A DNA stretch of 64,000 nucleotides from an uncultured Candidatus Saccharibacteria bacterium (GTDB taxonomy: Bacteria > Patescibacteriota > Minisyncoccia > Phycocordibacterales > UBA3531). The position numbers were made by a program, and so were the translations under genes. The stretch is from contig CAYIAA010000004.1 in assembly GCA_964361405.1 (NCBI GenBank), positions 10,508-74,507 of the forward strand, read 5' to 3'. The notes below the pieces were generated by a model that saw nothing but the letters and a program-made list of their open reading frames with translations, was not told where the DNA came from and searched no databases. The stretch's first letter is position 1, and each line of letters starts with the position of its first letter. Of this stretch, positions 5,343-52,515 are shown piece after piece.

Positions 5343-5831
5343 ATGGGGCAAGAACCCATCTGCGAATGCGGGTATATTAAGCTTTGGCACGGTGTGACGA
5401 TGAGTTCGGAGAATTCCCAGCATATCTCCGACTGGTACACGTTCTCGCACATTATCCACGGCTTTTTCTTCTACTGGGTCCTTTCACTTTTCGCCCCGCG
5501 GATGCCAATCGGGGCGCGTTTTATTGTTGCACTTCTCGCCGAAACCTCGTGGGAGATTTTCGAGAATACTGATTTCATAATCAACCGCTACCGCGAGACA
5601 ACCATATCGCTTGATTACTACGGTGATTCCGTTATCAATTCCGTCGGCGATGTCATTGCGAGTGTTTTCGGATTCGTCCTCGCTCACCGCTTGCCCGTGT
5701 GGGTTGTTGTCGCTGCCGCGATTGTAATGGAGGCAGGGGTGGGATACGCGATTCGCGACAATTTGACGCTTAATATCATTATGCTGATCCAGCCATTCGA
5801 TTCGATTAGGGTGTGGCAGGGTGGTGGGTGA
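5343..5831 (+). CDS. Membrane protein resembling the UPF0314/DUF2585 family (ICxCGY...SENSQ...DWYTFSH..HG motif, C-terminal WQGGG). It may have an upstream N-terminal extension without a canonical start (see findings).
   Basis: The conserved-looking motif string and three or four hydrophobic helices are present. The family assignment is from memory and should be confirmed by HMM search. Confidence 0.55.
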
Positions 5832-5846
5832 TAAAATAGATACACC

Positions 5847-8033
5847 ATGAACCGCGCAGAAAAAAACATGCACTGTGTGTGCGGCAAGACCTGCATTATA
5901 TGCAGCGCGGAGGAACTTGCCGTTACCTGTGGTTGCGGTATTGAGGCCAAACAGCACGAATACAATCTTAAGAAAGATTCATGGCATCAGGAACACAGCG
6001 GGCACGGAGTAGAGCACTTGAGTCACCGCGATCACGAAGCCGCCATGACGAGTCCGCGCTTGGCAAAACAGATGGAGGCGGATATGCGTCGGCGGTTTTT
6101 CATTTCTCTCGCGCTTACCATTCCTATTGTCCTTTATTCGCCGATGGGAGAAATGCTTTTCGGTATTTCACTCTGGTTTCCTTTTCCGAAAAATTCGTTT
6201 TTGTTTCTTCTGACCACACCCATAGTGTTTTGGACGGGCTCAATTTTTATCACTGGCACGTATTATTCGTTGAAAGCTCGCACGCTCAACATGACGGTCT
6301 TGGTCGCAACGGGAATTTTGGCGGCGTATCTTGGCAGTATCGCTCTCACTTTTACTGGTGGAGGCGAAGTATTCTACGAAGCGGCTGCGATGCTCGTAAC
6401 GTTTGTGCTTTTTGGACACTGGATGGAAATGAAATCTCGCCGCGGGACGTCGGATTCTCTCCGTGCGCTCTTTGATCTCGTGCCTCCGCAAGCGCGAGTG
6501 ATGCGCAATGGAAAAGAAATTTTAATCGCGAGCACGGAGGTGGTGCAAGGCGACAGTGTAGTATTAAAACCCGGCGACAAAGTGCCCGTTGACGGCATTG
6601 TAACCCTCGGAGAAACAGCGGTTGATGAGGCACTTGTTACCGGCGAATCACTCCCAGTTTCAAAGAAAATCGGTGATAAAGTCATTGGCGGTTCAATCAA
6701 TCAAAATGGAGCAATACAATTCCTCGCTACAAAAGTTGGATCAGATACGGTACTCGCCTCAATCATTAGAATGGTGGAAACGGCGCAGAATTCCAAAGCG
6801 CCCGGACAGCGAATTGCGGACAAAGCGGCAGCATGGCTTGTCGTGCTCGCGGTCGCGTCGGGTATAGCCGCATTTTTCGGATGGTACACCATTGTGGGCG
6901 CGACATTCGTTGTCGCTCTCACGTTTGCCATTTCGACTGTCGTCATCGCGTGTCCAGATGCACTTGGACTCGCCACCCCGACGGCGGTTGCGGTGGGAAC
7001 AGGGCTTGGCGCGAAGCACGGCATTCTCATTAAAAATGCGGCGACACTTGAGGGCGCGTCAAAAATCAATGCCATTGTGCTTGATAAAACGGGGACGTTG
7101 ACGGAGGGGAAGCCGAAAGTTACCGAAGTTATCACCACGGGAAATATGTCGGAGGAAACCCTTCTCCAGTATGCCGCAAGCGTTGAAACAAAATCGAGCC
7201 ATCCCTTGTCGGCGGCAATCCTCGATGAGGCGAAAAAAAGAGGCATTTCTCTCCTTGCGACGGAAAATTTTCAATCACTTTCGGGATTAGGACTTGAGGG
7301 TGTTGTTGGCGGAAAAAACGTTCTTGTTGGCACCGAGCGATTGTTGCGTGACCGCGGTATTGACACGGAGAATATGAGAGGAGCAATCGAGAAACTTTTG
7401 GCGGGCGGTAAAACATTGAGTATTATTGCCGTTGACAATCTCGCCGTAGGCATCATCGGCATTTCCGACGAAGTGCGCGGAACATCAAAAAAGACGGTAA
7501 CGAAACTGAAGGAGCTCGGCATTGAAACAGCGATGATTACCGGGGACAATAAAAAAATTGCGGAAGCGGTGGGGGTAGAGCTCGGTATTGACCGTGTATT
7601 CGCGGAAGTCATGCCGAAAGACAAAGCGAGCTTCGTGAAGAAATTACAAGACGAAGGAAAATTCGTCGCGATGGTGGGGGACGGCGTGAATGATGCGCCC
7701 GCCCTCGCGCAATCGGATATCGGCATCGCGATTGGTGCCGGAACGGATGTGGCGATTGAAACGGCAAGCATTGTACTCATGAAGTCCGACCCGTATGACA
7801 TTGTCGCGGCGATCCGTTTGAGCAAGGCGACTGTCCGTAAAATGAAGCAGAATCTGTTTTGGGCGGCAATCTATAACGTGCTCGCCATTCCGATTGCGGC
7901 CGGTGTTTTTTATTCCTCGCTCGGGTGGACTCTGCGGCCTGAAATTGCGGCCCTTCTTATGTCGGCATCGTCCATTATCGTCGCCACAAATGCCGTTCTT
8001 TTGAAGCGGGTGGAATCTGGATTAACTGAATAA
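5847..8033 (+). CDS. copA: Heavy-metal-translocating P1B-type ATPase, CopA-like (Cu+ signature YN in TM7 and MSASS in TM8). It has a non-canonical CPD transmembrane motif and a Cys/His-rich N-terminus.
   Basis: DKTGTLT phosphorylation motif, TGDN, GDGVNDAP hinge, and the CPD+ALGLATP TM6 motif. The N-terminus reads MHCVCGKTCIICSAEELAVTCGCG followed by the His-rich stretch HQEHSGHGVEHLSHRDHE. Confidence 0.9.
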   Translation: MNRAEKNMHCVCGKTCIICSAEELAVTCGCGIEAKQHEYNLKKDSWHQEHSGHGVEHLSHRDHEAAMTSPRLAKQMEADMRRRFFISLALTIPIVLYSPMGEMLFGISLWFPFPKNSFLFLLTTPIVFWTGSIFITGTYYSLKARTLNMTVLVATGILAAYLGSIALTFTGGGEVFYEAAAMLVTFVLFGHWMEMKSRRGTSDSLRALFDLVPPQARVMRNGKEILIASTEVVQGDSVVLKPGDKVPVDGIVTLGETAVDEALVTGESLPVSKKIGDKVIGGSINQNGAIQFLATKVGSDTVLASIIRMVETAQNSKAPGQRIADKAAAWLVVLAVASGIAAFFGWYTIVGATFVVALTFAISTVVIACPDALGLATPTAVAVGTGLGAKHGILIKNAATLEGASKINAIVLDKTGTLTEGKPKVTEVITTGNMSEETLLQYAASVETKSSHPLSAAILDEAKKRGISLLATENFQSLSGLGLEGVVGGKNVLVGTERLLRDRGIDTENMRGAIEKLLAGGKTLSIIAVDNLAVGIIGISDEVRGTSKKTVTKLKELGIETAMITGDNKKIAEAVGVELGIDRVFAEVMPKDKASFVKKLQDEGKFVAMVGDGVNDAPALAQSDIGIAIGAGTDVAIETASIVLMKSDPYDIVAAIRLSKATVRKMKQNLFWAAIYNVLAIPIAAGVFYSSLGWTLRPEIAALLMSASSIIVATNAVLLKRVESGLTE

Positions 8034-21962: not shown

Positions 21963-22008
21963 GGTATAGTGTTTGGGCCCTTAGCCCCTCACTTGGGATG
22001 GTCATGAT

Positions 22009-22278
22009 ATGTATTATGTATATGTACTGCAAAGCAAGAAGGATAGAAGTTTATACATTGGCTATACAAACGATCTGAAAAGGCGGTTTGAGGAACACAA
22101 TAAGAAATTAAGCAGATCAACAAAATTCAAAACGCCTTTTCAGCTCGTGTATTACGAAGCATATCAATCACGAGCCGATGCGCGATATCGTGAAGATAAT
22201 CTCAAACGATATTCTGGTGCGTATACGCATCTGCGACGCAGGATTAAGAACAGTGTCGCAGATGACCATCCCAAGTGA
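22009..22278 (+). CDS. Stand-alone GIY-YIG nuclease family protein (UPF0213-like)
   Basis: YYVYVLQSKKDRSLYIGYTNDLKRRFEEHN is the canonical GIY-YIG motif. The stop is 1 nt before the tRNA. Confidence 0.8.
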   Translation: MYYVYVLQSKKDRSLYIGYTNDLKRRFEEHNKKLSRSTKFKTPFQLVYYEAYQSRADARYREDNLKRYSGAYTHLRRRIKNSVADDHPK

Positions 22279-22279
22279 G

Positions 22280-22355
22280 GGGCCGTTAGCTTAGTTGGTA
22301 GAGCGCCACATTTGCAATGTGGAGGTCGCCGGTTCGAATCCGGCACGGTCCACCA
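22280..22355 (+). tRNA. tRNA-Ala(TGC), CCA encoded
   Basis: Hand-folded cloverleaf: acceptor GGGCCGT/ACGGTCC with G3:U70, anticodon stem CCACA/TGTGG, loop TTTGCAA (anticodon TGC), T-arm GCCGG TTCGAAT CCGGC, discriminator A, then CCA. Confidence 0.85.
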
Positions 22356-29179: not shown

Positions 29180-29253
29180 GAGTCCGTAGCTCAGTTGGTT
29201 AGAGCACTGTCCTCACACGGCAGGGGTCGGTGGTTCGAATCCACCCGGGCTCA
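29180..29253 (+). tRNA. tRNA-Val(CAC), no encoded CCA
   Basis: Hand-folded: acceptor GAGTCCG/CGGGCTC, D-arm GCTC AGTTGGTTA GAGC, anticodon stem CTGTC/GGCAG, loop CTCACAC, T-arm GGTGG TTCGAAT CCACC, discriminator A. Confidence 0.8.
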
Positions 29254-29297
29254 CAGTAACTAGATGGATTCGAACCCGAGGAGATCGTCTCCTCTAT

Positions 29298-29537
29298 CGG
29301 GCACAGGTGTAACGGTAACATGCACGGTTTGGGGTTCCCTTTTGTGTCGGGGCATGGTGTAACGGTAACATGCACGGTTCGGGATCGTGTGACTCCGGGT
29401 TCGAATCCCGGTGCCCCGACACAAAAGGGAACCCAATGTCTGGGGGACATTGGAGGAAGTTTACAGAAATAAACTTGTTTGACTCCGGGTTCCCTGGCCG
29501 ACTGCGTCAGCGGACTAGGCGAATCCCGGTGCCCCGA
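29298..29537 (+). pseudogene. Disrupted tRNA-Pro-like copy. Its 5' fragment (29298-29330) and 3' fragment (29478-29537, with a 28-nt insertion in the T-loop) are separated by the intact tRNA-Pro(CGG) unit. The whole is flanked by a 21/22-nt inverted repeat (29284-29304 / 29529-29550).
   Basis: The 5' fragment shares GGTGTAACGGTAACATGCACGGTT (24/24) with the intact gene, but its acceptor is missing one G. The 3' fragment has CCGGG TT [CCCTGGCCGACTGCGTCAGCGGACTAGG] CGAAT CCCGG TGCCCCG A. Confidence 0.5.
29348..29419 (+). tRNA. tRNA-Pro(CGG), no encoded CCA. The leader and trailer form a perfect 23-bp helix that includes the acceptor stem.
   Basis: Hand-folded: acceptor CGGGGCA/TGCCCCG, D-arm GTGT AACGGTA ACAT, anticodon stem CACGG/TCGTG, loop TTCGGGA (CGG, G37), variable TGACT, T-arm CCGGG TTCGAAT CCCGG, discriminator A. 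Confidence 0.85.
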
Positions 29538-29570
29538 TAGAGGAGACGATTACTAATAGAGAGTTTGAAA

Positions 29571-29644
29571 GGGCCCGTAGTTCAGTGGTAAAACGCTCGA
29601 TTCGCATTCGAGAGGCGGGAGTCCGATTCTCCCCGGGTCCACCA
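29571..29644 (+). tRNA. tRNA-Ala(CGC), CCA encoded
   Basis: Acceptor GGGCCCG/CGGGTCC with G3:U70, anticodon stem CTCGA/TCGAG, loop TTCGCAT, T-arm GGGAG TCCGATT CTCCC, discriminator A, then CCA. Confidence 0.8.
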
Positions 29645-33289: not shown

Positions 33290-34192
33290 TTGAGAAAAAT
33301 GCTTAAGGTATGGCTTAACGGCAAGATTGTTTCGGAGCAGAGAGCTCGCGTGTCCATTCGCGCACACGCTCTTCACTACGGCACCGGCGTCTTTGAGGGA
33401 ATCCGGTTTTACGATACGGAAAAAGGGAGAGCAATTTTTAGACTTGATGATCACATCAAGCGTCTCCGTTACTCCGCTCGGGCAATCGGGGTGCAAAATA
33501 TTCCAACTTCGGCAACTATACAAAAAGGAATCATAGACATACTCCGTGCGCACACGTACCGCTCTGGGTATATCCGCCCGATTATTTTTTTCGGAGAAAG
33601 TAATCTTGGGCTTTCCACAGAGGGTCTCAAGGCAGATTTTGCCGTTATTGTTTTGCCGTGGAAAAAATATCTTGCGAAGACATCTATTTCACTCAAGACC
33701 GCAGAGACGCGGCGATTTAACCCGCGCGCATTCGACCCGAACGCGAAGATAAGTGGTGTGTACGTAAATTCAATCACGGCGCACCGCGAAGCGGAAAAAG
33801 CTGGGTGCGACGAGGCACTTCTTCTTGGGGACGACGGCTCGGTCGCTGAAGGAGCAGGGGAGAATATTTTTATCATAAAGCGAGGAGTTCTCTATACGCC
33901 GCCCCGGGGGAATATTCTTCCCGGCATTACGCGGAAGACTGTATTTGAAATTGCAAGAAATTTTAAAATCCCCGTGCGGGAAAAACGCCTCCGCCTCGCC
34001 GATCTCTATCGCGCCGACGAATGTTTCCTCACGGGCACTGCCACGGAAGTGACGCCGGTCGGGCGTATTGACGGGAAATTAATCAATCGCGGCCGCGTTG
34101 GGGACAGTACGTCCCGGATCAGTGACAGATTTCAAGAGATTGTGAATGGTCGCGCGCGGAGCTATTGGCACTTACTCACATTCGTCGGGTAG
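33290..34192 (+). CDS. Class IV (branched-chain amino acid / D-amino acid) aminotransferase
   Basis: HYGTGVFEGIRFY. A Lys-containing active-site region. ENIFIIKRGVLYTPP...LPGITRKTVFEIA matches the fold type IV PLP enzymes. Confidence 0.85.
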   Translation: MRKMLKVWLNGKIVSEQRARVSIRAHALHYGTGVFEGIRFYDTEKGRAIFRLDDHIKRLRYSARAIGVQNIPTSATIQKGIIDILRAHTYRSGYIRPIIFFGESNLGLSTEGLKADFAVIVLPWKKYLAKTSISLKTAETRRFNPRAFDPNAKISGVYVNSITAHREAEKAGCDEALLLGDDGSVAEGAGENIFIIKRGVLYTPPRGNILPGITRKTVFEIARNFKIPVREKRLRLADLYRADECFLTGTATEVTPVGRIDGKLINRGRVGDSTSRISDRFQEIVNGRARSYWHLLTFVG

Positions 34193-34929
34193 CGTCGTAT
34201 GAGCGGGTCTTGGGAAGGGAGGCCAAGGCTCGAAATTTGTGCGACTCCCGTCACGCTTCCCCACTTGGAAGCGAAGCTTCCAAGTGGGGACTTTCGCATA
34301 CTGTGGACCCGCGGGGAGTCGGTCATCCCGCCAAGCGGGACGACCCCGCCTCACTCGCCTGTGCTCGTTCCGGCCTGCGACTCCCTGCAAATATACTGCC
34401 TAATTGTGGTCACGAGTCACTAAGTATATTGCTTCGCATTGCTCGCAATCTACGTAAGTGCTCGCGACCCCGGCTCGTGGTTTCGCCTCTCGACGAAACA
34501 TCACTGCGCCTTCCACAAGCTAAAAATTACGAGCAGTCGTAATTTTGCTTACGCTTGTGGACCCGCGGGGAGTCGGTCACATATAATTTTCTGCTGAAAA
34601 TTTATGCGACCCCGCCTCACTCGCCTGTGCTCGTTCCGGCCTGCGATCCCCGCCACGCTTCGCTACAGTATGCAAAAATCCCCACTAAAAAAGCAGGGAC
34701 TTTCGCATACTGTGGACCCGCGGGGAGTCGCACCCCGGATTCGTCCATGCCATGGACGCGTGTTACTGCTATACTACGGGCCCGTTACGGATTACGGATT
34801 CAATTATACACAGATATACACAGAGTTGCGGAAAATGAAAAAAAGAAGGTTCTCTTTCTTAGTATACTCTATAGATATGAACGCCCAAGAGTTTCTGGGG
34901 TGCGCTTTTGTGGTTAGAAGCCCATCTAA
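34193..34929. repeat. Repeat-rich noncoding region containing: a 39-nt direct repeat (34342-34380 = 34608-34646, identical); a second repeat family GGGACTTTCGCATACTGTGGACCCGCGGGGAGTCG (34287-34325, 34695-34729, partial at 34556-34579); and one copy of the dispersed palindrome (34258-34290).
   Basis: Seen directly by string comparison. The overlapping track ORFs here are judged spurious. Confidence 0.7.
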
Positions 34930-37900
34930 GTGACTAAAATAAAAACAGTGTCATTCAAGCACGCACGTTTCTTATTTGTCTTCGCTGTTCTTGTTGGGGG
35001 AGTGCTTTTCCTAGGCTTGGCGTCACCGAGGACCAGTTTTGCCGCCGCTTGCCAGTCTGCCGCTCCCGGCGGCGCCAACTGGTCAAATGCAGGTGCGTGG
35101 ACGAACTGTGGTGGGACTACCCCGGGTGCCGCTGATACCGTTCAAATCTTGAACGGCGATGTCGTGGCTCTAGACACTAATGCTACTACTACCTCCATTA
35201 CCATCGACAATGGAGGCCTTTTGTACGAAGATGGGGCTCGCGTCTTGGTTGTTTCCGGTGGCTGGACTAATAACGGAACGTTTACGAGTGGCACCGGTTT
35301 GGTGAAATTTACTGGCACTCAAACGATTACTGGCACGACAACTTTCAACGGTCTTGAATTCGCCCCTACCTCTGCCGCCACCTTCACCATCGCCTCCGGC
35401 ACTTTTGCCACGACAACAGGGACCCTAACCATCAGTGGTAGTAACAACGTCACCCTCAATACCGGCAACCTTAATGCTCAAGGCAATATTATGGTTACTA
35501 ACAGTGGCACTGGGGGCGGTGGCACGGCAACCATTACGATCAACGGAACAGGAAGTCAGACCTTGACCGGACCCTCAACACTTGGTCAGGGAATATTACC
35601 CAACCTTACCTACAACAAAACTTCAGGCTCATTTTCCGCGACCGGCAACATTACCGTGAGCGATTTTAGGATTAACGCTGGCACGTTTACCTCGACATCC
35701 GGCACGCTGGAAGTGCAAGGCTCGACCCTCAACATGAGTGGCGGCACGTTTACGCATAACGGCGGCACCGTGAGGATTAAATATTCAATGACCCTCACCG
35801 GCTCGCAGACATTCAACAATTTAGAGCTCATACCGACAGGCGGGCGCACGCTCACCATCGCCTCTGGCACCTTCGCCACGACAACCGGAACCCTGACGTA
35901 CGGTACGTACAGCAACTCTTCCGCCGACAGAATGACCATCAATACCGGCAACATTGACGCGCAGGGCGATATCACGGTTACCAATGTCAGCACTATTTTA
36001 GGCGGCGGCACGGCGACCATTACGATCAACGGCACGGGAGCGCAGGTTTTCACCGGGCCGGCGACGCTCAACGCCAACCCCCTTGCGCGTCTCCCGAAAA
36101 TTACCATAGACAAGCCATCGGGCACACTCACCTTGGCCGGCTTTATCACGGTCGCCGGCAACTGGACGTATGTCCGCGGTACCGTGGACGCGACCACCAA
36201 CGATTCAACCGTCGTCACCATAGCCAACATTACCTTCGACGGCCAGGGGACTTCCGCGACCATGGCATTTGACAACATACGGGTACATGCTGGCACGGTT
36301 ACCTTGGGCGGCAATCTCGACATGGACGGTAACTTGACAATAATTTCTAGCAGATTTCTCGTTGCCGCAGACTTCAGCGTCAATGTCGCCGGCGACTGGA
36401 GCAATAGCGGCACCTACACATCAGGAACCAACACAACCACTTTCGACGGCAGTGGCACCTCTACTATCACCACCGGCGGAACGGGTACGGGCAATGATTT
36501 CCAGGATTTCACCGTCGACAAGTCTGGCGGCGCAACTGCGCAACTTCTGGGACCCCTGGACGTGGACGGCACCCTCACGATTACGGCCGGCACTTTGGAC
36601 TTGAATACCCAGAACCTCTCCACCGTCACCACCTGTGATAATTCCGCCACCTTCAAACTTGCCGGTGATGAAACTATTTCATGTACACCAACCAATAATG
36701 CCGGCTCCACGGTGGAATATACCGCTACGACGACCACCAGAAACATCAAAGATTGGACATATCATCACCTCACGGTGAATGGTAGTGGTGGCACATTCAC
36801 CTCCGGCGCTGACGAAACCATTGGTGGTAATCTCACTGTTTCTGCTGGGACCTTGGACACCTCCACCGGCTCCCGTACGTTTACTGTCAATAACACCCTG
36901 ACGGTAAACGGTGGCACACTCACAGCGACGAATGGCACCTTAAATGCCAACCGCGATGTATCTCTTACCTCCGGGACGCTCACGGCACCCTCGGGCGTCT
37001 TCACCGTCTTAGGCAACTGGGTCCAATCAGGCGGCACTTTCACGCACTCATCGGGCACGGTCACGTTTGCGAGCACTTCTGTCCAGACTTTGAACTCCGG
37101 CGGCTCCACCTTTAATGCTATTTCTCACAATGCCGGCGGCACGCTCCGCTTTTCCACGAATCCTCTCTACGCGTCCTCGACCGTCACCAATTCTGACGGC
37201 ACTTTTGACGCGAATGACCTCGCCGTCCTTGCTGACGGATTGGTTACGGTGAGTGGGGGAGAATACCAGTCAAAAACTGCTTCGAGCACTTTTAGTGGCG
37301 GTTTAACCGTCTCCGGCGGCACGTTCACTGGCTCGACTGGCGGGGTAGAGGTGAATGGTAATCTGGCTTTATCCTCCGGAACGCTCACGGCACCCTCGGG
37401 CCCTTTCCTTGTCTCCGGCTCCTGGTCACAAACGGGTGGCACATTTACTCCCGGTACCGGTACGGTGAGGTTTGATGGAACTGCGGCGGGTAATACGATT
37501 AACACTGGTGGCACATCTTTTTATCAATTGACGGTGAACGGTTCGGGCGGTGCCTGGACACTCGCCACTTCTAACGCCACTACCACTGCCACTACAACCG
37601 TCACCGCCGGCACCTTGACCGTGCCGGCAACTCTCACCCTCAGCACTGCCTCAACTACTATCAACGGGGGAACGCTTACCGCAACCTCTGGCACTTTGGA
37701 TATAAATGGCAACCTCACTCTTTCCTCGGGAACGCTCACCGCGCCGTCGGGGACAATGACGCTCTCCGGAAATTTTACTAACTCGGGCGGCACGTTCACT
37801 CACAGCTCTGGTACCTTTACCTTGGACGGTGCCGACCAGACTCTTTCCGGCGCTACTATCTTTGGGAATCTCACTAAGACTGTCACCAGTGCTCGCATAC

Positions 37901-39495
37901 TCACTTTTGATAATGCTTCCACGCAGACTATTGCCGGCACTCTCACTCTTCAAGGAGCGGCCACTACCCTCCTCTCGCTCCACTCTGACGTTGACGGCAC
38001 CCAATGGGAGATCGATCCCCAAGGTACTCGGGACATTTCCTATATTGATGTCAAAGATTCCAACAACACCAATGCCACGGCCATTAACTGTATCAGTGAG
38101 AAAAGATGCACTGACTCGGGCAACAACACCAACTGGACCTTTGTCCAAGCCGCGAGTGCCCAAACCTCGAGCGAAACCACATCAAGCGGCGGGGGTGGCG
38201 GAGGAGGGGGACCAATAGGATTATTCGGGAGTATCGGTATTTCGATTCCATCCATTTCGGTCGTTGAAACAGTTACCCCGGTCGTTGAAACGATACATGA
38301 ATTTATAGAAGAAATAACGCCTTCTCTTATCCCTTTCATACCAGAGATATTCCGACCGAAGCCGCCACTTGCTGAAAAATCCCCCTCGGAGGCCGTGGAA
38401 ACTGTTACCCCGCCGTCATTCGCCGGCACATGGAAACTCTTGAATACCCAAAAGATCGGTGCCTTTGCTTTTGCACCATTGCCACCGGCCCTTGCCGCCC
38501 TCGTCGTGAAATTCCCCGAACTTGAAAAAACATTTGCGAAAGTCGGTGTGGTGCGTTTCTCGGATGTCGAGAAACTCGAAGGCGTGTCACTGCACTTACC
38601 ATCGTTTAGTGAAGTCGCTGACCTTCCAACCGAAGTGATATTTGCCAGCGCAGGGAAAAGACTTTTTGATTATAATTTGGCGCTCGACGTATCGGGGAGC
38701 GGAGAGTTGACACAGCGCCTCAACGCCGTTTCCGGTCAGCTGCTCGAACTTTCTGTCCGGCCGGAGCATGCGGTAACAAGTATCGATGGATATCTCACTC
38801 TGAAAACGAGCGCGTTCTCGGAAGATACGGAGACGATACCGGCACGATCTCTCACCGCGGGGCTTATTATGTCGCACGCGGTTTTTGCACAGTCGATTTC
38901 AGATAAAGTTAAGATCGAAGATCGGCTTCTTCTTACCTCATTTGACTATGCTGATCCTGACTACGACGGTGTGTACACCGCAGCTCTTCAGGCGCCCCTC
39001 GTCGCTGGGAATTTTGAAGTTATTACGATTATTACTTACGAAGACCCGAAACTCGGCAGAAAGGAACTTCGGTTGACGCTCGTTGTTGACCCAGAGGGCT
39101 ATGTCTATAGCCTGGTTTCAGGTGGCGAGCTCCGTATAGAAAATGCCCTCGTCACAATTTACTGGAAGAATGAAGAAACAGGGGCTTTCGAGATTTGGAA
39201 CGCACGGGAGTTCCAGCAAGTGAATCCGCAAACGACTGAAACAAGCGGTGAATACTCTTTCCTTGTCCCGCCCGGCACCTATTATCTTTCCGTACTCGCG
39301 TCCGGGTATGAGCCCTACACGAGCGAACCATTCCCAGTTCTCGTTGGGTCCGGAGTCCATCGGAATATTGAACTCACCCCCCAGGGCGGTATATTCCGTC
39401 GGATAAATTGGATAGTAGTGGTCGGAGTGTTCCTCACACTCTCCCTCCTCTACAATTTCTATCGGGATCGGACAAGGTTGCGAAGTGCTTCATGA
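34930..39495 (+). CDS. Giant (1521 aa) cell-surface protein: signal peptide, long Thr/Gly/Asn-rich beta-helix-like region with ~33-aa degenerate tandem repeats, poly-Gly linker, C-terminal Ig-like (carboxypeptidase-regulatory-like) module and a TM anchor
   Basis: GTG start. Signal/TM FLFVFAVLVGGVLFLGLASPRTSFAAA. Repeats of the form SGTLTAPSGxFTVxGNWxQSGGTFTHSSGTVTF. GGGGGGGGP at ~1085. C-terminal INWIVVVGVFLTLSLLYNFY. Confidence 0.8.
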   Translation: MTKIKTVSFKHARFLFVFAVLVGGVLFLGLASPRTSFAAACQSAAPGGANWSNAGAWTNCGGTTPGAADTVQILNGDVVALDTNATTTSITIDNGGLLYEDGARVLVVSGGWTNNGTFTSGTGLVKFTGTQTITGTTTFNGLEFAPTSAATFTIASGTFATTTGTLTISGSNNVTLNTGNLNAQGNIMVTNSGTGGGGTATITINGTGSQTLTGPSTLGQGILPNLTYNKTSGSFSATGNITVSDFRINAGTFTSTSGTLEVQGSTLNMSGGTFTHNGGTVRIKYSMTLTGSQTFNNLELIPTGGRTLTIASGTFATTTGTLTYGTYSNSSADRMTINTGNIDAQGDITVTNVSTILGGGTATITINGTGAQVFTGPATLNANPLARLPKITIDKPSGTLTLAGFITVAGNWTYVRGTVDATTNDSTVVTIANITFDGQGTSATMAFDNIRVHAGTVTLGGNLDMDGNLTIISSRFLVAADFSVNVAGDWSNSGTYTSGTNTTTFDGSGTSTITTGGTGTGNDFQDFTVDKSGGATAQLLGPLDVDGTLTITAGTLDLNTQNLSTVTTCDNSATFKLAGDETISCTPTNNAGSTVEYTATTTTRNIKDWTYHHLTVNGSGGTFTSGADETIGGNLTVSAGTLDTSTGSRTFTVNNTLTVNGGTLTATNGTLNANRDVSLTSGTLTAPSGVFTVLGNWVQSGGTFTHSSGTVTFASTSVQTLNSGGSTFNAISHNAGGTLRFSTNPLYASSTVTNSDGTFDANDLAVLADGLVTVSGGEYQSKTASSTFSGGLTVSGGTFTGSTGGVEVNGNLALSSGTLTAPSGPFLVSGSWSQTGGTFTPGTGTVRFDGTAAGNTINTGGTSFYQLTVNGSGGAWTLATSNATTTATTTVTAGTLTVPATLTLSTASTTINGGTLTATSGTLDINGNLTLSSGTLTAPSGTMTLSGNFTNSGGTFTHSSGTFTLDGADQTLSGATIFGNLTKTVTSARILTFDNASTQTIAGTLTLQGAATTLLSLHSDVDGTQWEIDPQGTRDISYIDVKDSNNTNATAINCISEKRCTDSGNNTNWTFVQAASAQTSSETTSSGGGGGGGGPIGLFGSIGISIPSISVVETVTPVVETIHEFIEEITPSLIPFIPEIFRPKPPLAEKSPSEAVETVTPPSFAGTWKLLNTQKIGAFAFAPLPPALAALVVKFPELEKTFAKVGVVRFSDVEKLEGVSLHLPSFSEVADLPTEVIFASAGKRLFDYNLALDVSGSGELTQRLNAVSGQLLELSVRPEHAVTSIDGYLTLKTSAFSEDTETIPARSLTAGLIMSHAVFAQSISDKVKIEDRLLLTSFDYADPDYDGVYTAALQAPLVAGNFEVITIITYEDPKLGRKELRLTLVVDPEGYVYSLVSGGELRIENALVTIYWKNEETGAFEIWNAREFQQVNPQTTETSGEYSFLVPPGTYYLSVLASGYEPYTSEPFPVLVGSGVHRNIELTPQGGIFRRINWIVVVGVFLTLSLLYNFYRDRTRLRSAS

Positions 39496-43275: not shown

Positions 43276-43611
43276 GACGTAACGCAAGCACGAAACAGGT
43301 TAAAGGCATTCATGGGGGAGTATGACACACTAACTTTTAGTGTGTCTGATTATCCTAGTGGTGAATGGATAGCAGAATGCAGAGAAATTCCTGCGATTCT
43401 AACTGGAGGTATGAACGAAGCTGCTCCAGAACGTATCGAAAAAATGCAAGATGCTATTATCACTGCTGCAGGGATTCCAGCAGGACACGCTAACGTTCTT
43501 AAGCTTTCTGGATATCAATTTAATGAAGAAGCACAACAGGAGTTAGGTAGGTCTTTTAATTCAATGGCAACATATGTCCTACAACCCGAGAGAAGCCTAC
43601 AGGTCTGTTAG
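43276..43611 (+). CDS. HicB-like antitoxin domain protein (UPF0150/HicB_lk_antitox-like)
   Basis: YDTLTFSVSDYPSGEWIAECREIPAILTGGMNEAAPERIEKMQDAI fits the HicB N-terminal pattern (y..ve..e.gGyva.vPelpGc.sqGeT.eEA...ireAi). Local GC is lower than the flanks. Confidence 0.5.
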   Translation, partial: DVTQARNRLKAFMGEYDTLTFSVSDYPSGEWIAECREIPAILTGGMNEAAPERIEKMQDAIITAAGIPAGHANVLKLSGYQFNEEAQQELGRSFNSMATYVLQPERSLQVC

Positions 43612-43915
43612 GCTTAACAAAGGACATCTTGTTGCCCGGATAAAAAATATAACCCAGAGTAAATGGACCAAGGTTTGTGAAAATCTTGGCCTTTTTGTAT
43701 CAAAAGAATATGGAAAAGGAGGACACTACTCCGTTTATAGGTCAAAAGAATGTTCCCCAGAGTACACAAATGATAGTAGTTGTCTCGTTTTAACTATTCA
43801 GAAAGACCAATATCCAGAAATTCAGAGGGATAATGTAAAAAAGATTGTTGCCTATGGGGCTTACAGTAAGCTTTATACAGAAGAAGATGTTTGGAAAGCT
43901 TTAGGAATTCAATAA
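43574..43915 (+). CDS. Possible HicA-like mRNA-interferase toxin (divergent, 113 aa). It overlaps the upstream gene by 38 nt.
   Basis: KVCENLGLFVSKEYGKGGHYSVYRS resembles the HicA core (G-f....GSHh.f). Assignment is weak. Confidence 0.35.
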   Translation: MSYNPREAYRSVRLNKGHLVARIKNITQSKWTKVCENLGLFVSKEYGKGGHYSVYRSKECSPEYTNDSSCLVLTIQKDQYPEIQRDNVKKIVAYGAYSKLYTEEDVWKALGIQ

Positions 43916-43925
43916 CCCGATTTTA

Positions 43926-43979
43926 TATCAAGGGCCGCCCTTGATAATTAAGGACACTTGGAAGCTTCGCTTCCAAGTG
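43926..43979. repeat. Two adjacent hairpins: ATCAAGGG-CCG-CCCTTGAT (43926-43944), and a copy of the dispersed palindrome CACTTGGAAGC-TTC-GCTTCCAAGTG (43955-43979)
   Basis: Seen directly. Located immediately downstream of the hicA-like stop. Confidence 0.7.
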
Positions 43980-44064: not shown

Positions 44065-45030
44065 ATGAATACAGACACACAACGTATAAGAACAAGTCCG
44101 AAGGATTTTTTCCTTCACGTAGCCGCAATCATAACGCTCTATACGAGCTCCTATGCGCTACTCCAGCTTACGTTCCAGCTCGTAGATTATCTTTTCCCGG
44201 ATGAGCTTGCGTTCTATGTCGATCCGTATGCCGGCGCGATTCGCTGGTCCATTGCACTTCTCGTCATTATTTTCCCCGTCTATATCTTGTGCATGTGGTT
44301 TTTGAATCGGGAAATGGTGAAAAATCCAGAAAAGCGAGATGTCGGAATCAGAAAATGGCTTCTCTATCTTACGCTTTTCATCTCCGGCACCGTGGTTATT
44401 GGAGACCTCATTGCTCTCATCAATACTTTCCTGGGAGGTGAAATTACGGCTCGTTTCATGTTGAAGGTCAGTGCTGTACTCATCGTTGCCGCGCTCATTT
44501 TCGGTTACTATATCTTCGACTTACGCTCGAGTGGCGGGCGCGACCGCCGGAAGTACCGAATATTTATGGGGACCGCTATCGCCCTCGTACTTGCCGTTCT
44601 CGTCGGTGGATTCCTAGTGATGGGTTCACCGGGGACACAGCGTATTAAGCGTTTTGATGCGACACGCGTGGAGAATTTACAGGCAATTCAGTGGGAAATC
44701 ATCAATTATTGGCAACAGCGCCAAATACTTCCACCTGACCTTGAAGCCATGACAAACCCTATCGGCGGATGGATTGCCCCGACAGACCCCGATACCCAGG
44801 AACCTTACAACTATGAAGTACTTGGGTCGCGCATCTTTAAACTCTGTGCCACCTTTAGTCTCGCTTCAGACGGAGTCTCTGGAGCGGATACCCTTTCTAG
44901 AGAGCCAGCCCGGCCGGTTAAGGCGATTCCCGGGGGGAGTATGGAATCGTGGAATTGGCAGCACAACACTGGACCAACTTGTTTTGAGAGAACCATCGAC
45001 CCACAGATATATCCCCCATACAAGAATTAA
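44065..45030 (+). CDS. Hypothetical polytopic membrane protein (~6 TM in the N-terminal 190 aa, soluble C-terminal domain)
   Basis: Hydrophobicity pattern only. A possible DUF5671-like architecture, not confirmed. Confidence 0.5.
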   Translation: MNTDTQRIRTSPKDFFLHVAAIITLYTSSYALLQLTFQLVDYLFPDELAFYVDPYAGAIRWSIALLVIIFPVYILCMWFLNREMVKNPEKRDVGIRKWLLYLTLFISGTVVIGDLIALINTFLGGEITARFMLKVSAVLIVAALIFGYYIFDLRSSGGRDRRKYRIFMGTAIALVLAVLVGGFLVMGSPGTQRIKRFDATRVENLQAIQWEIINYWQQRQILPPDLEAMTNPIGGWIAPTDPDTQEPYNYEVLGSRIFKLCATFSLASDGVSGADTLSREPARPVKAIPGGSMESWNWQHNTGPTCFERTIDPQIYPPYKN

Positions 45031-50845: not shown

Positions 50846-51397
50846 ATGAAAAAACACAACCTCGTATTTATCGACCTTGAAACAACAGGCCTCGACCCCG
50901 AGCGGCACGAAATCATTGAAATTGGGTGTATTATTGCCCGCCAGGTCGCGCGCCCCGGCAAAGGTCCGGTTGTCGAAAAAATCGAAGAAATTGACCTCAA
51001 GGTTAAACCCGAACATATTGAAACTGGAGACCCGCAATCGTTTCGCATCAACGGCTATACACCGGAAGCGTGGCTTTTTGCCGTTGACTTGAAACCCGCT
51101 CTTGAAAAAATCGTGGAAAAAACTGCGGACGCGATTATGGTCGGACAAAACGTTTCTTTCGACTGGGTATTTTTAGAAAAAGCATTTGCGAAAACTGGCG
51201 TAATACACAAGATGCATTACCACAAAATTGACACCATCGCACTCGCTTTCGCCAAGCTCTACGACGACGACCGAGCGCAAAAGTTCTCACTGCGTTCACT
51301 CTGTGAACTCCTGGGGATTGTGAATGAACACGAGCATACCGCGCTCTCGGACGTACGGGCAACTTACGAGGTCTACAAAAAACTTTTGAATTGCTAA
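50846..51397 (+). CDS. DEDDh 3'-5' exonuclease (DnaQ/epsilon-like)
   Basis: Exo I FIDLETTGL, Exo II GQNVSFDWVFL, Exo III HTALSDVRATYEVY. Confidence 0.8.
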   Translation: MKKHNLVFIDLETTGLDPERHEIIEIGCIIARQVARPGKGPVVEKIEEIDLKVKPEHIETGDPQSFRINGYTPEAWLFAVDLKPALEKIVEKTADAIMVGQNVSFDWVFLEKAFAKTGVIHKMHYHKIDTIALAFAKLYDDDRAQKFSLRSLCELLGIVNEHEHTALSDVRATYEVYKKLLNC

Positions 51398-52515
51398 CAA
51401 TGTCAAGGGGAACCCTTGACAATAGTATGCGGCACAGCAAGGTTATAGTTGCCATGTCTGGCGGCGTGGATAGTTCCGTTTCCGCGGCGCTTCTTCACCG
51501 CGCGGGCTATGACGTTACCGGCGTTTTTATCCGCGTATGGTATCCGCCCGGGATTTATTGCTCGGCGGAAGACGACCGGCGTGATGCGCTCCGTGTGGCG
51601 GCTAAAATTGGTATTCCGCTTCTCACGGTCAATTTGGAAAAAGAGTACAAAACTGCGGTGATAGATTCGATGTTTCGTGAGTATACGCGCGGACGGACGC
51701 CCAACCCCGATATTCTCTGCAATGAAAAAGTAAAATTTGGAGCATTTCGTACGTGGGCGCGAAAGCGTGGAGTTGATGCAATCGCAACGGGTCACTATGC
51801 CCGGATTGTGAAACAAGACGGAACACTCCACCTCCGTGCCGGAAAAGATAAAGAAAAAGACCAAAGTTATTTTCTGTATCGCCTCGGAAATCGGGCACTC
51901 GCGCGGATTATTTTTCCTGTGGGAGCCATGGAGAAGAGTGAAGTACGGGCACTCGCGCGGCGATTTGGTCTCCCCACTGCGGAGAAGAAAGATAGCCAAG
52001 GGCTTTGCTTCGTGGGGAAATTTGATTTCAAGGAATTTTTGAAACACTATGTGCCAGTGAAATCCGGTACCGTGCTCGATACGAAAGGCAAAATCATCGG
52101 GCACCACGATGGAGCTCTTCTCTATACCATCGGCGAGCGGCATGGATTTAATGTGACAAAAAAAAGCCCGCACGATCCGCCGTACTACGTTGTTGGGCGT
52201 GACGTAAAAAAGAATACGCTTACTGTCGCTCGGGGAAATGAAGAAAAGAGATTTTTCAAACGAAAAATAATCCTCTCTCATCCCCACTGGGTTTCTGGAA
52301 AACCGCCCGCACTCTCGGGAACATACCGCGCCCGTATTCGCTACCGCCAACCGCTTCAATCCTGCCGATTAGTAAAACAACCCCCACTTGGAAGCGAAGC
52401 TTCCAAGTGGGGGTATATGGTTGTTTTTGATCGCCCCCAGAGAGCTGTCACGCCCGGGCAATCACTGGTTCTTTACCGCGGAATAGAGTGTCTCGGTGGA
52501 GGAGTGATTACATAG
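51391..52515 (+). CDS. mnmA: tRNA-specific 2-thiouridylase MnmA. It carries an in-frame 33-nt palindromic element near the C-terminus.
   Basis: PP-loop AMSGGVDSS, catalytic cysteines (DILCNEK; GLCFVG), C-terminal AVTPGQSLVLYRGIECLGGGVI. Confidence 0.9.
   Translation: MLTMSRGTLDNSMRHSKVIVAMSGGVDSSVSAALLHRAGYDVTGVFIRVWYPPGIYCSAEDDRRDALRVAAKIGIPLLTVNLEKEYKTAVIDSMFREYTRGRTPNPDILCNEKVKFGAFRTWARKRGVDAIATGHYARIVKQDGTLHLRAGKDKEKDQSYFLYRLGNRALARIIFPVGAMEKSEVRALARRFGLPTAEKKDSQGLCFVGKFDFKEFLKHYVPVKSGTVLDTKGKIIGHHDGALLYTIGERHGFNVTKKSPHDPPYYVVGRDVKKNTLTVARGNEEKRFFKRKIILSHPHWVSGKPPALSGTYRARIRYRQPLQSCRLVKQPPLGSEASKWGYMVVFDRPQRAVTPGQSLVLYRGIECLGGGVIT
52381..52413. repeat. Palindromic element CCCCCACTTGGAAGC-GAA-GCTTCCAAGTGGGGG (15-bp stem) inside the mnmA coding sequence. 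It encodes PPLGSEASKWG in-frame.
   Basis: Seen directly. The same core is at 34258-34290 and, in the opposite loop orientation, at 43955-43979. Confidence 0.8.

Follow-up and report, generated by a model that had tools for sequence, protein, structure and literature searches.

A short palindrome inserted in mnmA and its probable REP-type family with a RAYT-like transposase in the Candidate Phyla Radiation

A short perfect palindrome occurs three times in a 64,000-nt stretch of the genome of an uncultured Candidatus Saccharibacteria bacterium (contig CAYIAA010000004.1, positions 10,508 to 74,507; this whole stretch is called the window in the following), and one of the copies lies in-frame inside mnmA, the gene of the tRNA 2-thiouridine synthase. 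With a probability that we put at about three in four, these palindromes are copies of a repetitive extragenic palindromic (REP)-type element that is dispersed in Parcubacteria-type bacteria of the Candidate Phyla Radiation (CPR) and comes with a transposase resembling the tyrosine transposases that accompany REPs (RAYTs). A preliminary description of this DNA had taken the palindrome for a REP-like dispersed element, and this view is borne out.

All three copies were recovered with the exact 25-nt core CACTTGGAAGC-NNN-GCTTCCAAGTG, which matches the window at 34262-34286, 43955-43979 and 52385-52409 and gives 0 matches in each of 100 dinucleotide-preserving shuffles, confirming the positions first described. 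Copy 1 (34258-34290, a 15-bp perfect stem with a GAA loop) is intergenic and flanked by an aminotransferase-like open reading frame (ORF; 33290..34192) and a tRNA-Ala(ggc) repeat region; a 125-aa ORF that overlaps it (34165..34542) is most likely spurious. Copy 2 (43955-43979, an 11-bp stem with a TTC loop) is likewise intergenic, 40 nt past the stop codon of ORF 43574..43915 and 86 nt ahead of ORF 44065..45030. Copy 3 (52380-52414, GAA loop) is the one inside mnmA, and its perfect stem counts 16 bp, not 15, when the flanking A/T pair is included. Hairpin energies of -27.9, -16.1 and -31.0 kcal/mol are predicted for copies 1, 2 and 3, respectively, computed with RNA parameters. Copies 1 and 3 are identical at 31 of 31 positions, and the translation SEASKWG that they had been noted to share is indeed present, but it merely follows from the identical DNA and is not independent evidence. 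Similarly, the copy with the TTC loop had been called inverted; its loop is complementary, but it differs from the others in the loop alone, because the stem is its own reverse complement. The 10-nt half-site is confined to the three palindromes in the window and always forms inverted pairs there. Perfect hairpins with a stem of at least 9 bp are called 18 times, with some hairpins counted at two loop sizes, against 0-4 calls in simulated sequences, and an Rfam search of the window returned only tRNAs, without a meaningful match at copy 1. The window comes from Hainich groundwater metagenomes, and two independent replicate assemblies are identical to it, with 0 mismatches over 21,062 and 11,878 nt spanning copies 2 and 3, which makes an isolated error of assembly unlikely.

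The family extends far beyond this genome. A scan of one genome per species with the pattern ACTTGGAAGC-NNN-GCTTCCAAGT, which describes a 23-nt core, found the exact core in at least 117 contigs and at least 145 copies, almost all of them from CPR; among the matches listed, three only were on contigs labelled non-CPR. The depositors' labels, which are unverified, include Giovannoni-, Yanofsky-, Nomura-, Zambryski-, Kaiser-, Azam-, Niyogi-, Vogel-, Campbell-, Morani-, Sungi- and Falkowbacteria as well as Paceibacterota, Minisyncoccia and 'uncultured Saccharibacteria'. The suspicion that the repeat family might be genome-specific has thus to be given up, the more so as the family in its generalised form flanks a conserved transposase gene, described below, in hundreds of contigs from metagenomes. 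Single metagenome-assembled genomes (MAGs), such as JAHIHZ01 and JBDRJU01, contain at least 8-9 exact copies each, so the element is multi-copy and dispersed as expected of a REP, a palindrome of 20-40 nt. The idea of a phage-borne element was rejected on 0 matches among 2.9 million viral contigs. The loop sequence varies between copies and tends to typify a genome.

Within this family, the unit consists of ACTTGG, an inner stem of 4-5 bp, a loop of 1-3 nt, the complement of the inner stem and CCAAGT, usually surrounded by a short C/G-rich extension of the stem; its core length is 23 nt in 277 of 278 copies. The terminal GT[AG]G (or CGTC) tag of REPs is absent, and the foot ACTTGG/CCAAGT with a weak CCC/GGG extension is found instead. 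The stem extends at least 2 bp past the core in 48% of coding and 44% of non-coding copies, compared with 6% expected. Coding and non-coding copies are extended alike, and pre-existing terminators therefore cannot explain the extension; the weak CCC/GGG consensus accounts for part of it, and symmetrisation or an insertion into older palindromes may account for the rest. A reading of the palindromes as uptake signals (DNA uptake sequences, DUS, or uptake signal sequences, USS) or as operator sites was rejected, as the half-sites never occur singly and the stems co-vary. DUS and USS are linear motifs that often stand alone, in one orientation or the other.

The element is free of stop codons in all six frames unless the loop supplies one, and it does not lie predominantly outside genes as REPs do: about half of its copies are intragenic. 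By an open-frame heuristic that yields a few false positives, such as copy 1 of the window, 65 of 119 copies lie within long ORFs (50 of 87 when transposase-associated copies are left aside), while 77% of random positions do so. The use of the frames is skewed, with LGSxASK read 34 times, LEAxLPS 28 times and TWKxxFQV only 3 times, which fits selection against bulky hydrophobic inserts. Of 20 host ORFs checked by Pfam, 19 are recognisable enzyme genes, mostly with core housekeeping functions, and one had no Pfam match. Arginyl-tRNA synthetase (ArgRS) was hit four times, GyrB, TsaD, UvrC and class II aminoacyl-tRNA synthetases twice each, and topoisomerase I (TopA), UvrB, the CCA-adding enzyme, GlmS and others are further hosts. 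This set resembles the bias of intragenic REPs toward DNA-repair and tRNA-related genes that has been reported (PMC3733652). Exact copies recur across candidate phyla in ArgRS (L006, L018, L033, L082) and in GyrB (L037, L092), and three of the four ArgRS copies share a similar position, close to where the DALR domain starts; these recurrent copies are either ancient orthologous insertions that were kept sequence-perfect or the result of an insertion hot spot.

The mnmA gene is the host that can be followed in most detail. Its ORF spans 51391..52515 on the plus strand, and the gene itself, which is identified by its homologs and by matches in the PDB, takes up 51454..52515, with the start that the gene callers give (51454). 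Copy 3 encodes (Q)PPLGSEASKWG in this frame. In an alignment of the window MnmA with 22 of its homologs, the invariant columns include S12-G13-D16-S17, C99 and C195, and the gene is intact, with the PP-loop and the catalytic cysteine residues conserved; solved MnmA structures match the protein with E about 1e-93. The AlphaFold model has a mean predicted local distance difference test (pLDDT) score of 91.4, and the insert is the sole low-confidence stretch of its C-terminal domain (residues 321-330, mean pLDDT about 60). As the structural placement that had been suggested as a check shows, this stretch lies as a surface loop between the modelled strands 312-319 and 330-339. With the PP-loop and cysteines conserved and the solved structures matching, MnmA looks functional, and the insert looks like an additional surface loop in the model.

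That copy 3 is an in-frame insertion, as first described, is upheld by the homologs. The segment is missing from the MnmA protein P0004, which is 71% identical, and from every homolog that is more distant. The distance between the motifs RYRQ and GQS, which has a median of 27 residues in the 111 of 120 homologs where both motifs were found, is 34 residues in the window MnmA (+7), in a beta-hairpin loop whose length varies widely in the family (20 to 40 residues between the two motifs). The residues are therefore hardly ancestral MnmA sequence, and only the two closest relatives carry diverged versions of them. These relatives, L118 (MnmA 82% identical) and L119 (80%), have perfect palindromes of 24-3-24 and 18-3-18, respectively, at the same codon position as copy 3, so that the insertion is not private to this genome; locus L120 (71%) has no palindrome at the site. 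Both palindromes have diverged and yet are perfect: in L119, one arm has an A-to-G change and the other the matching T-to-C, and the outer arm differs too. Because the two closest relatives carry it at the same codon position, the insertion is older than the split of the window lineage from them. The inner part of the L118 palindrome, CCCCGAGGT-CCG-ACCTCGGGG, is found twice in that contig, once sitting precisely within the loop of the REP in mnmA (5811-5861) and again at about 6034-6054 in the spacer between mnmA and alaS; L118 has 18 extra nucleotides, or six amino acids, because this second palindromic element landed in the loop of the first. The more distant MnmA P0058 contains two canonical copies in other reading frames (LGSEASK and LEASLPS) at a wholly different position of the protein and is an independent hit on mnmA.

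A candidate enzyme emerged from the genomes in which the palindromes were found. In 14 palindrome-selected loci of other genomes, copies bracket a gene of about 215 codons, one of them 15-25 nt upstream of the start and another 4-24 nt behind the stop codon, and further in-frame copies are found inside the gene at residue ~60, at residue ~150, or at both. The product matches the Pfam family Y1_Tnp (PF01797) above the gathering cut-off, its top NCBIfam match is 'REP-associated tyrosine transposase' (NF047646), and its HUH histidines H77 and H79 and the catalytic Y137 are invariant. The family comprises 3,614 cluster representatives, some of which are named RayT by JGI. In a predicted structure with a mean pLDDT of 78, the internal copies form a low-pLDDT loop, as in MnmA, and Foldseek ranked 4ER8, a complex of the E. 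coli RAYT with a REP hairpin, first among PDB structures, followed by the TnpA proteins of IS608 and ISDra2.

The association also holds in the reciprocal direction. A second sample consisted of metagenome contigs picked by transposase homology alone, of which 80 of 576 relatives were kept and 76 had a recognisable ORF. Family hairpins of the form ACTTGG-stem-loop-stem-CCAAGT are found in 53 of these 76 loci: within 60 nt upstream of the transposase gene in 43 of 74 evaluable loci, downstream in 30 of 71, and internally and in-frame in 47 of 76. Copies flanking the cognate RAYT gene, as in a REPtron, are thus present in related genomes. The foot ACTTGG/CCAAGT is constant across loci, and the inner 4-5 bp differ between genomes, with 20 variants seen (AAGC, AGGT, GGGT, CGGTT, ACATT and others), in every one of which both arms change together. 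Within a locus, 90% of pairs share the inner 4-mer, compared with 6% of pairs between loci. The co-variation of the arms and the sharing within loci are the hallmark of REPs in co-evolution with their RAYT, and the AAGC form of the window shows itself to be one variant of a much larger family.

The upstream copy looks like a part of the transposase promoter, for example in L023 (7132-7180), L061 (267-305) and L124 (107-145). Behind it, 42 of 59 loci have a TATAAT-like box; in 26 of these 42 the TTGGNN hexamer of the REP stands exactly 17 nt before the TATAAT box, and in 20 of the 42 this -10 box ends 6 nt ahead of the ATG. Such a short distance suggests that the transposase mRNA is leaderless, and the arrangement makes an autoregulation through the hairpin possible.

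A mechanism can be drawn by analogy with the E. coli RAYT and the TnpA of IS200/IS605 (PMC3733652, PMC6006769). The RAYT-like HUH/Y1 transposase, presumably single-copy as in other RAYT systems, would bind the hairpin folded in single-stranded DNA and would recognise it through the invariant foot, which may be its recognition or cleavage site. Cutting and rejoining at the hairpin would generate new copies elsewhere and would keep the copies within a genome alike, so that the Y1 transposase would be both the mobilising enzyme and the agent of homogenisation. Insertions of a multiple of three in surface loops of proteins, as in MnmA, would survive, because the element has no stop in six frames and two of its frames give small hydrophilic peptides (LGSxASK, LEAxLPS). 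Hairpin loops would act as landing sites, as suggested by the nested element of L118, by nested and tandem forms elsewhere and by a GIY-YIG cassette in the window that is described below. Among the fetched loci of 8-20 kb, no locus with two transposase copies was found.

Several observations weigh against this reading. Three copies per 64 kb are a low density for a REP family, and that the AAGC inner stem does not vary in the first sample follows from the search pattern used. The E. coli mechanism depends on the GT[AG]G tag, which is missing from the element. The transposase scores 35.6 and 19.7 bits against an NF047646 cut-off of 80, its fold match is modest (template modelling score 0.45/0.56), and a profile search of PDB sequences gave nothing meaningful but one spurious RNase A match. 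The window has no homolog of the transposase (tblastn; best E 0.34 in a profile search), and informative pairs of filled and empty sites were sought by comparing L121 with L122 and then by all-against-all blastn of the fetched loci, which yielded none. As there is neither a transposase in the window nor a filled/empty pair among the fetched loci, recent transposition is something that we infer, and the element may still be active in the genome of the window. L124, which comes from the same well and carries the same variant, was considered as the source of the cognate transposase but had to be dropped: its tgt shares only 57% identity with that of the window, and it must stem from another organism.

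A more far-reaching version, which we put forward tentatively and regard as possible rather than probable, is that hairpin and transposase form an ancient partnership in Parcubacteria-type CPR bacteria, passed on largely vertically, in which constant rewriting in place by the transposase makes orthologous copies in essential genes, in the transposase gene and in its promoter track the current master sequence of the genome. If this were true, a standing mechanism would insert and re-edit short peptide loops in proteomes of reduced genomes, and the enzyme would possibly regulate itself through the hairpin in its own promoter.

As an alternative to a mobile element, intrastrand template switching, i.e. 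fold-back copying during replication or repair, could make and keep the hairpins, and the link to the transposase would then be incidental or regulatory. This would account well for orthologous copies that stay symmetric up to 18-24 bp while inner and outer arms change, for variable outer stems that are equally common in coding and non-coding copies, and for the long nested perfect palindromes of L036, L106 and L113, for example. However, it leaves unexplained why unrelated loci, in different genes and genomes, have one and the same 23-nt core whose 6-bp foot is invariant, and why the copies within a genome have one inner-stem variant in common. We therefore think that template switching is unlikely to be the origin of the family, but it may well act additionally as a symmetrising step.

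It has also to be considered that the palindromes are functional RNA or DNA signals under selection, such as intrinsic terminators, mRNA-stability elements or promoter elements, and not mobile DNA. The position of copy 2 behind a stop codon, a few copies flanked by A/T-runs like bidirectional terminators (e.g. L022, L081, L096) and the promoter-like spacing of the upstream copy at the transposase gene would be in line with this. Intrinsic terminators are GC-rich hairpins with a T-run behind them, downstream of genes. For the window copies, the terminator reading was rejected, as no T-run follows copy 1, 2 or 3 on either strand, and it was also rejected for the roughly half of all copies that lie inside long ORFs of housekeeping genes. 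Moreover, a terminator needs no sequence that is invariant across lineages, and a regulatory role of single copies is compatible with a mobile origin. Selection on such signals is thus quite improbable as a general explanation.

Another enzyme might mobilise the palindromes, for which the small GIY-YIG nucleases, of which these genomes have many, come to mind. In the window, a 22-bp perfect inverted repeat with the foot ACTTGG...CCAAGT (21984..22283) encloses a small GIY-YIG nuclease ORF on the plus strand (22009..22278; PF01541, E 2.7e-16) and directly adjoins tRNA-Ala(tgc) at 22280-22355. Besides the three copies it is the only ACTTGG...CCAAGT with extended arms in the window, and the ORF is probably a cassette in the loop of a family-type palindrome. 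Genes of this kind elsewhere are also bracketed by perfect inverted repeats, but these are of unrelated sequence; in L050 and L096, they are 14 bp long and read CCCGTTAGAGA. As the association with the Y1 transposase is in contrast systematic and position-specific in 59 loci, it is very doubtful that a GIY-YIG nuclease takes its place. That the segment is ancestral MnmA sequence or an assembly artefact, with no insertion at all, is hardly conceivable: the two closest orthologs do carry related residues at the same position, but P0004 and all distant homologs lack them, the loop is 7 residues over the median, the DNA is perfectly palindromic and matches intergenic copies exactly, the two replicate assemblies agree, and hundreds of independent MAGs carry the family.

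The window contains further repeats besides the REP-type element. A second small palindrome family, T(A/G)TCAAGGG-NNN-CCCTTGA(T/C)A, is present at 43926-43946, just before REP copy 2, and at 51401-51421, where the long mnmA ORF begins and the palindrome is translated as MSRGTLDN; L119 carries it at the orthologous site with a different loop, and the family was found in this lineage only. Beside REP copy 1, the 3' end of tRNA-Ala(ggc) (TGTGGACCCGCGGGGAGTCG) is present three times in the region 34280-34735, together with a 45-nt repeat, and the only complete tRNA is that at 34712-34783 on the minus strand; these copies may be remnants of integrations at the tRNA gene. A sequence paralogous to the copy 1 site has TGCTTTTTTAG in place of the palindrome. 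Directly downstream of this repeat-rich spacer, a 1,521-aa ORF (34930-39495) contains many T/G-rich repeats (...GGTFT..., families D1-D7), and its product looks like a large surface or adhesin-like protein. Finally, two repeats overlap tRNA-Pro in the tRNA cluster at 29180-29644 (Val-cac, Pro-cgg, Ala-cgc), namely a direct repeat of 37 nt (29297/29347) and a perfect inverted repeat of 23 nt (29332-29354 / 29412-29434).

REP/RAYT systems have mostly been studied in Proteobacteria, in which the repeats are almost wholly intergenic, and the CPR variant stays perfectly symmetric at orthologous coding sites even where this costs amino acid changes. If confirmed, it would offer a natural system for the question of how a single-strand DNA transposase homogenises hairpins and would be a recurring source of inserted loops for the proteins of minimal genomes, which bears on the annotation and the structure prediction of CPR proteins; in addition, ACTTGG-N11-CCAAGT would be a simple metagenome marker for these genomes. 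We found no prior account of a REP/RAYT system in CPR, Parcubacteria or Patescibacteria, nor of this sequence, in a literature search of incomplete coverage that leaves the novelty unproven.

Among the known systems, the miniature inverted-repeat transposable elements (MITEs) such as Correia, RUP, ERIC and Nezha are likewise non-autonomous and have inverted-repeat symmetry, but they are 70-300 bp long with terminal inverted repeats of 15-30 bp, whereas the CPR element has 23 nt and no evident direct duplication. MITEs usually have target-site duplications. The ends of IS200/IS605 elements and their non-autonomous derivatives, the palindrome-associated transposable elements (PATEs), share with the CPR system the recognition of a hairpin in single-stranded DNA by a Y1 HUH transposase, and the predicted fold matches the TnpA of IS608 and ISDra2; in contrast to IS200/IS605, however, the CPR system has neither distinct left and right ends nor tnpB, its transposase gene is apparently not multiplied, and its unit is a single symmetric hairpin. 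Most Rickettsia palindromic elements (RPEs) are about 100-150 bp long and specific to Rickettsia, and to our knowledge no dedicated associated transposase has been identified for them. They resemble the CPR element as in-frame palindromic inserts that are tolerated as extra surface peptides (cited in PMC3733652), but the RPE-1 type is described as longer than REP-sized repeats, while the CPR element has 23-35 nt, CPR hosts and an associated Y1 transposase.

The closest likeness is to the REP/RAYT REPtrons of E. coli, Pseudomonas and Stenotrophomonas, in which short dispersed palindromes likewise flank an HUH/Y1 gene and the repeat co-varies with the genome or the enzyme. REPs carry a conserved GT[AG]G or CGTC tetranucleotide at one end (PMC3733652, PMC6006769), although atypical untagged classes exist (subclasses 2.6 and 3; PMC6006769), and the CPR element has in its place the 6-bp foot conserved across lineages. 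Furthermore, REPs are imperfect and only a small minority are intragenic, while the CPR palindromes are perfect with a fixed 23-nt core and about half of them are intragenic; also unlike in textbook REP/RAYT systems, the CPR arms change together at orthologous sites. The transposase gene differs from that of REPtrons by its in-frame copies at two conserved sites and by a promoter that overlaps the upstream copy, the enzyme lies below the NCBIfam RAYT cut-off, and the CPR hosts do not appear in the survey consulted (PMC6006769). Occasional intragenic in-frame REPs are known, notably in DNA-repair, aminoacyl-tRNA synthetase and tRNA-modification genes, and with these and the Rickettsia RPEs documented (PMC3733652) an in-frame REP in a housekeeping gene is less exceptional than the preliminary description had implied. 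REP/RAYT systems, REPtrons and occasional intragenic REPs are already established, and the CPR system is best regarded as a variant of REP/RAYT.

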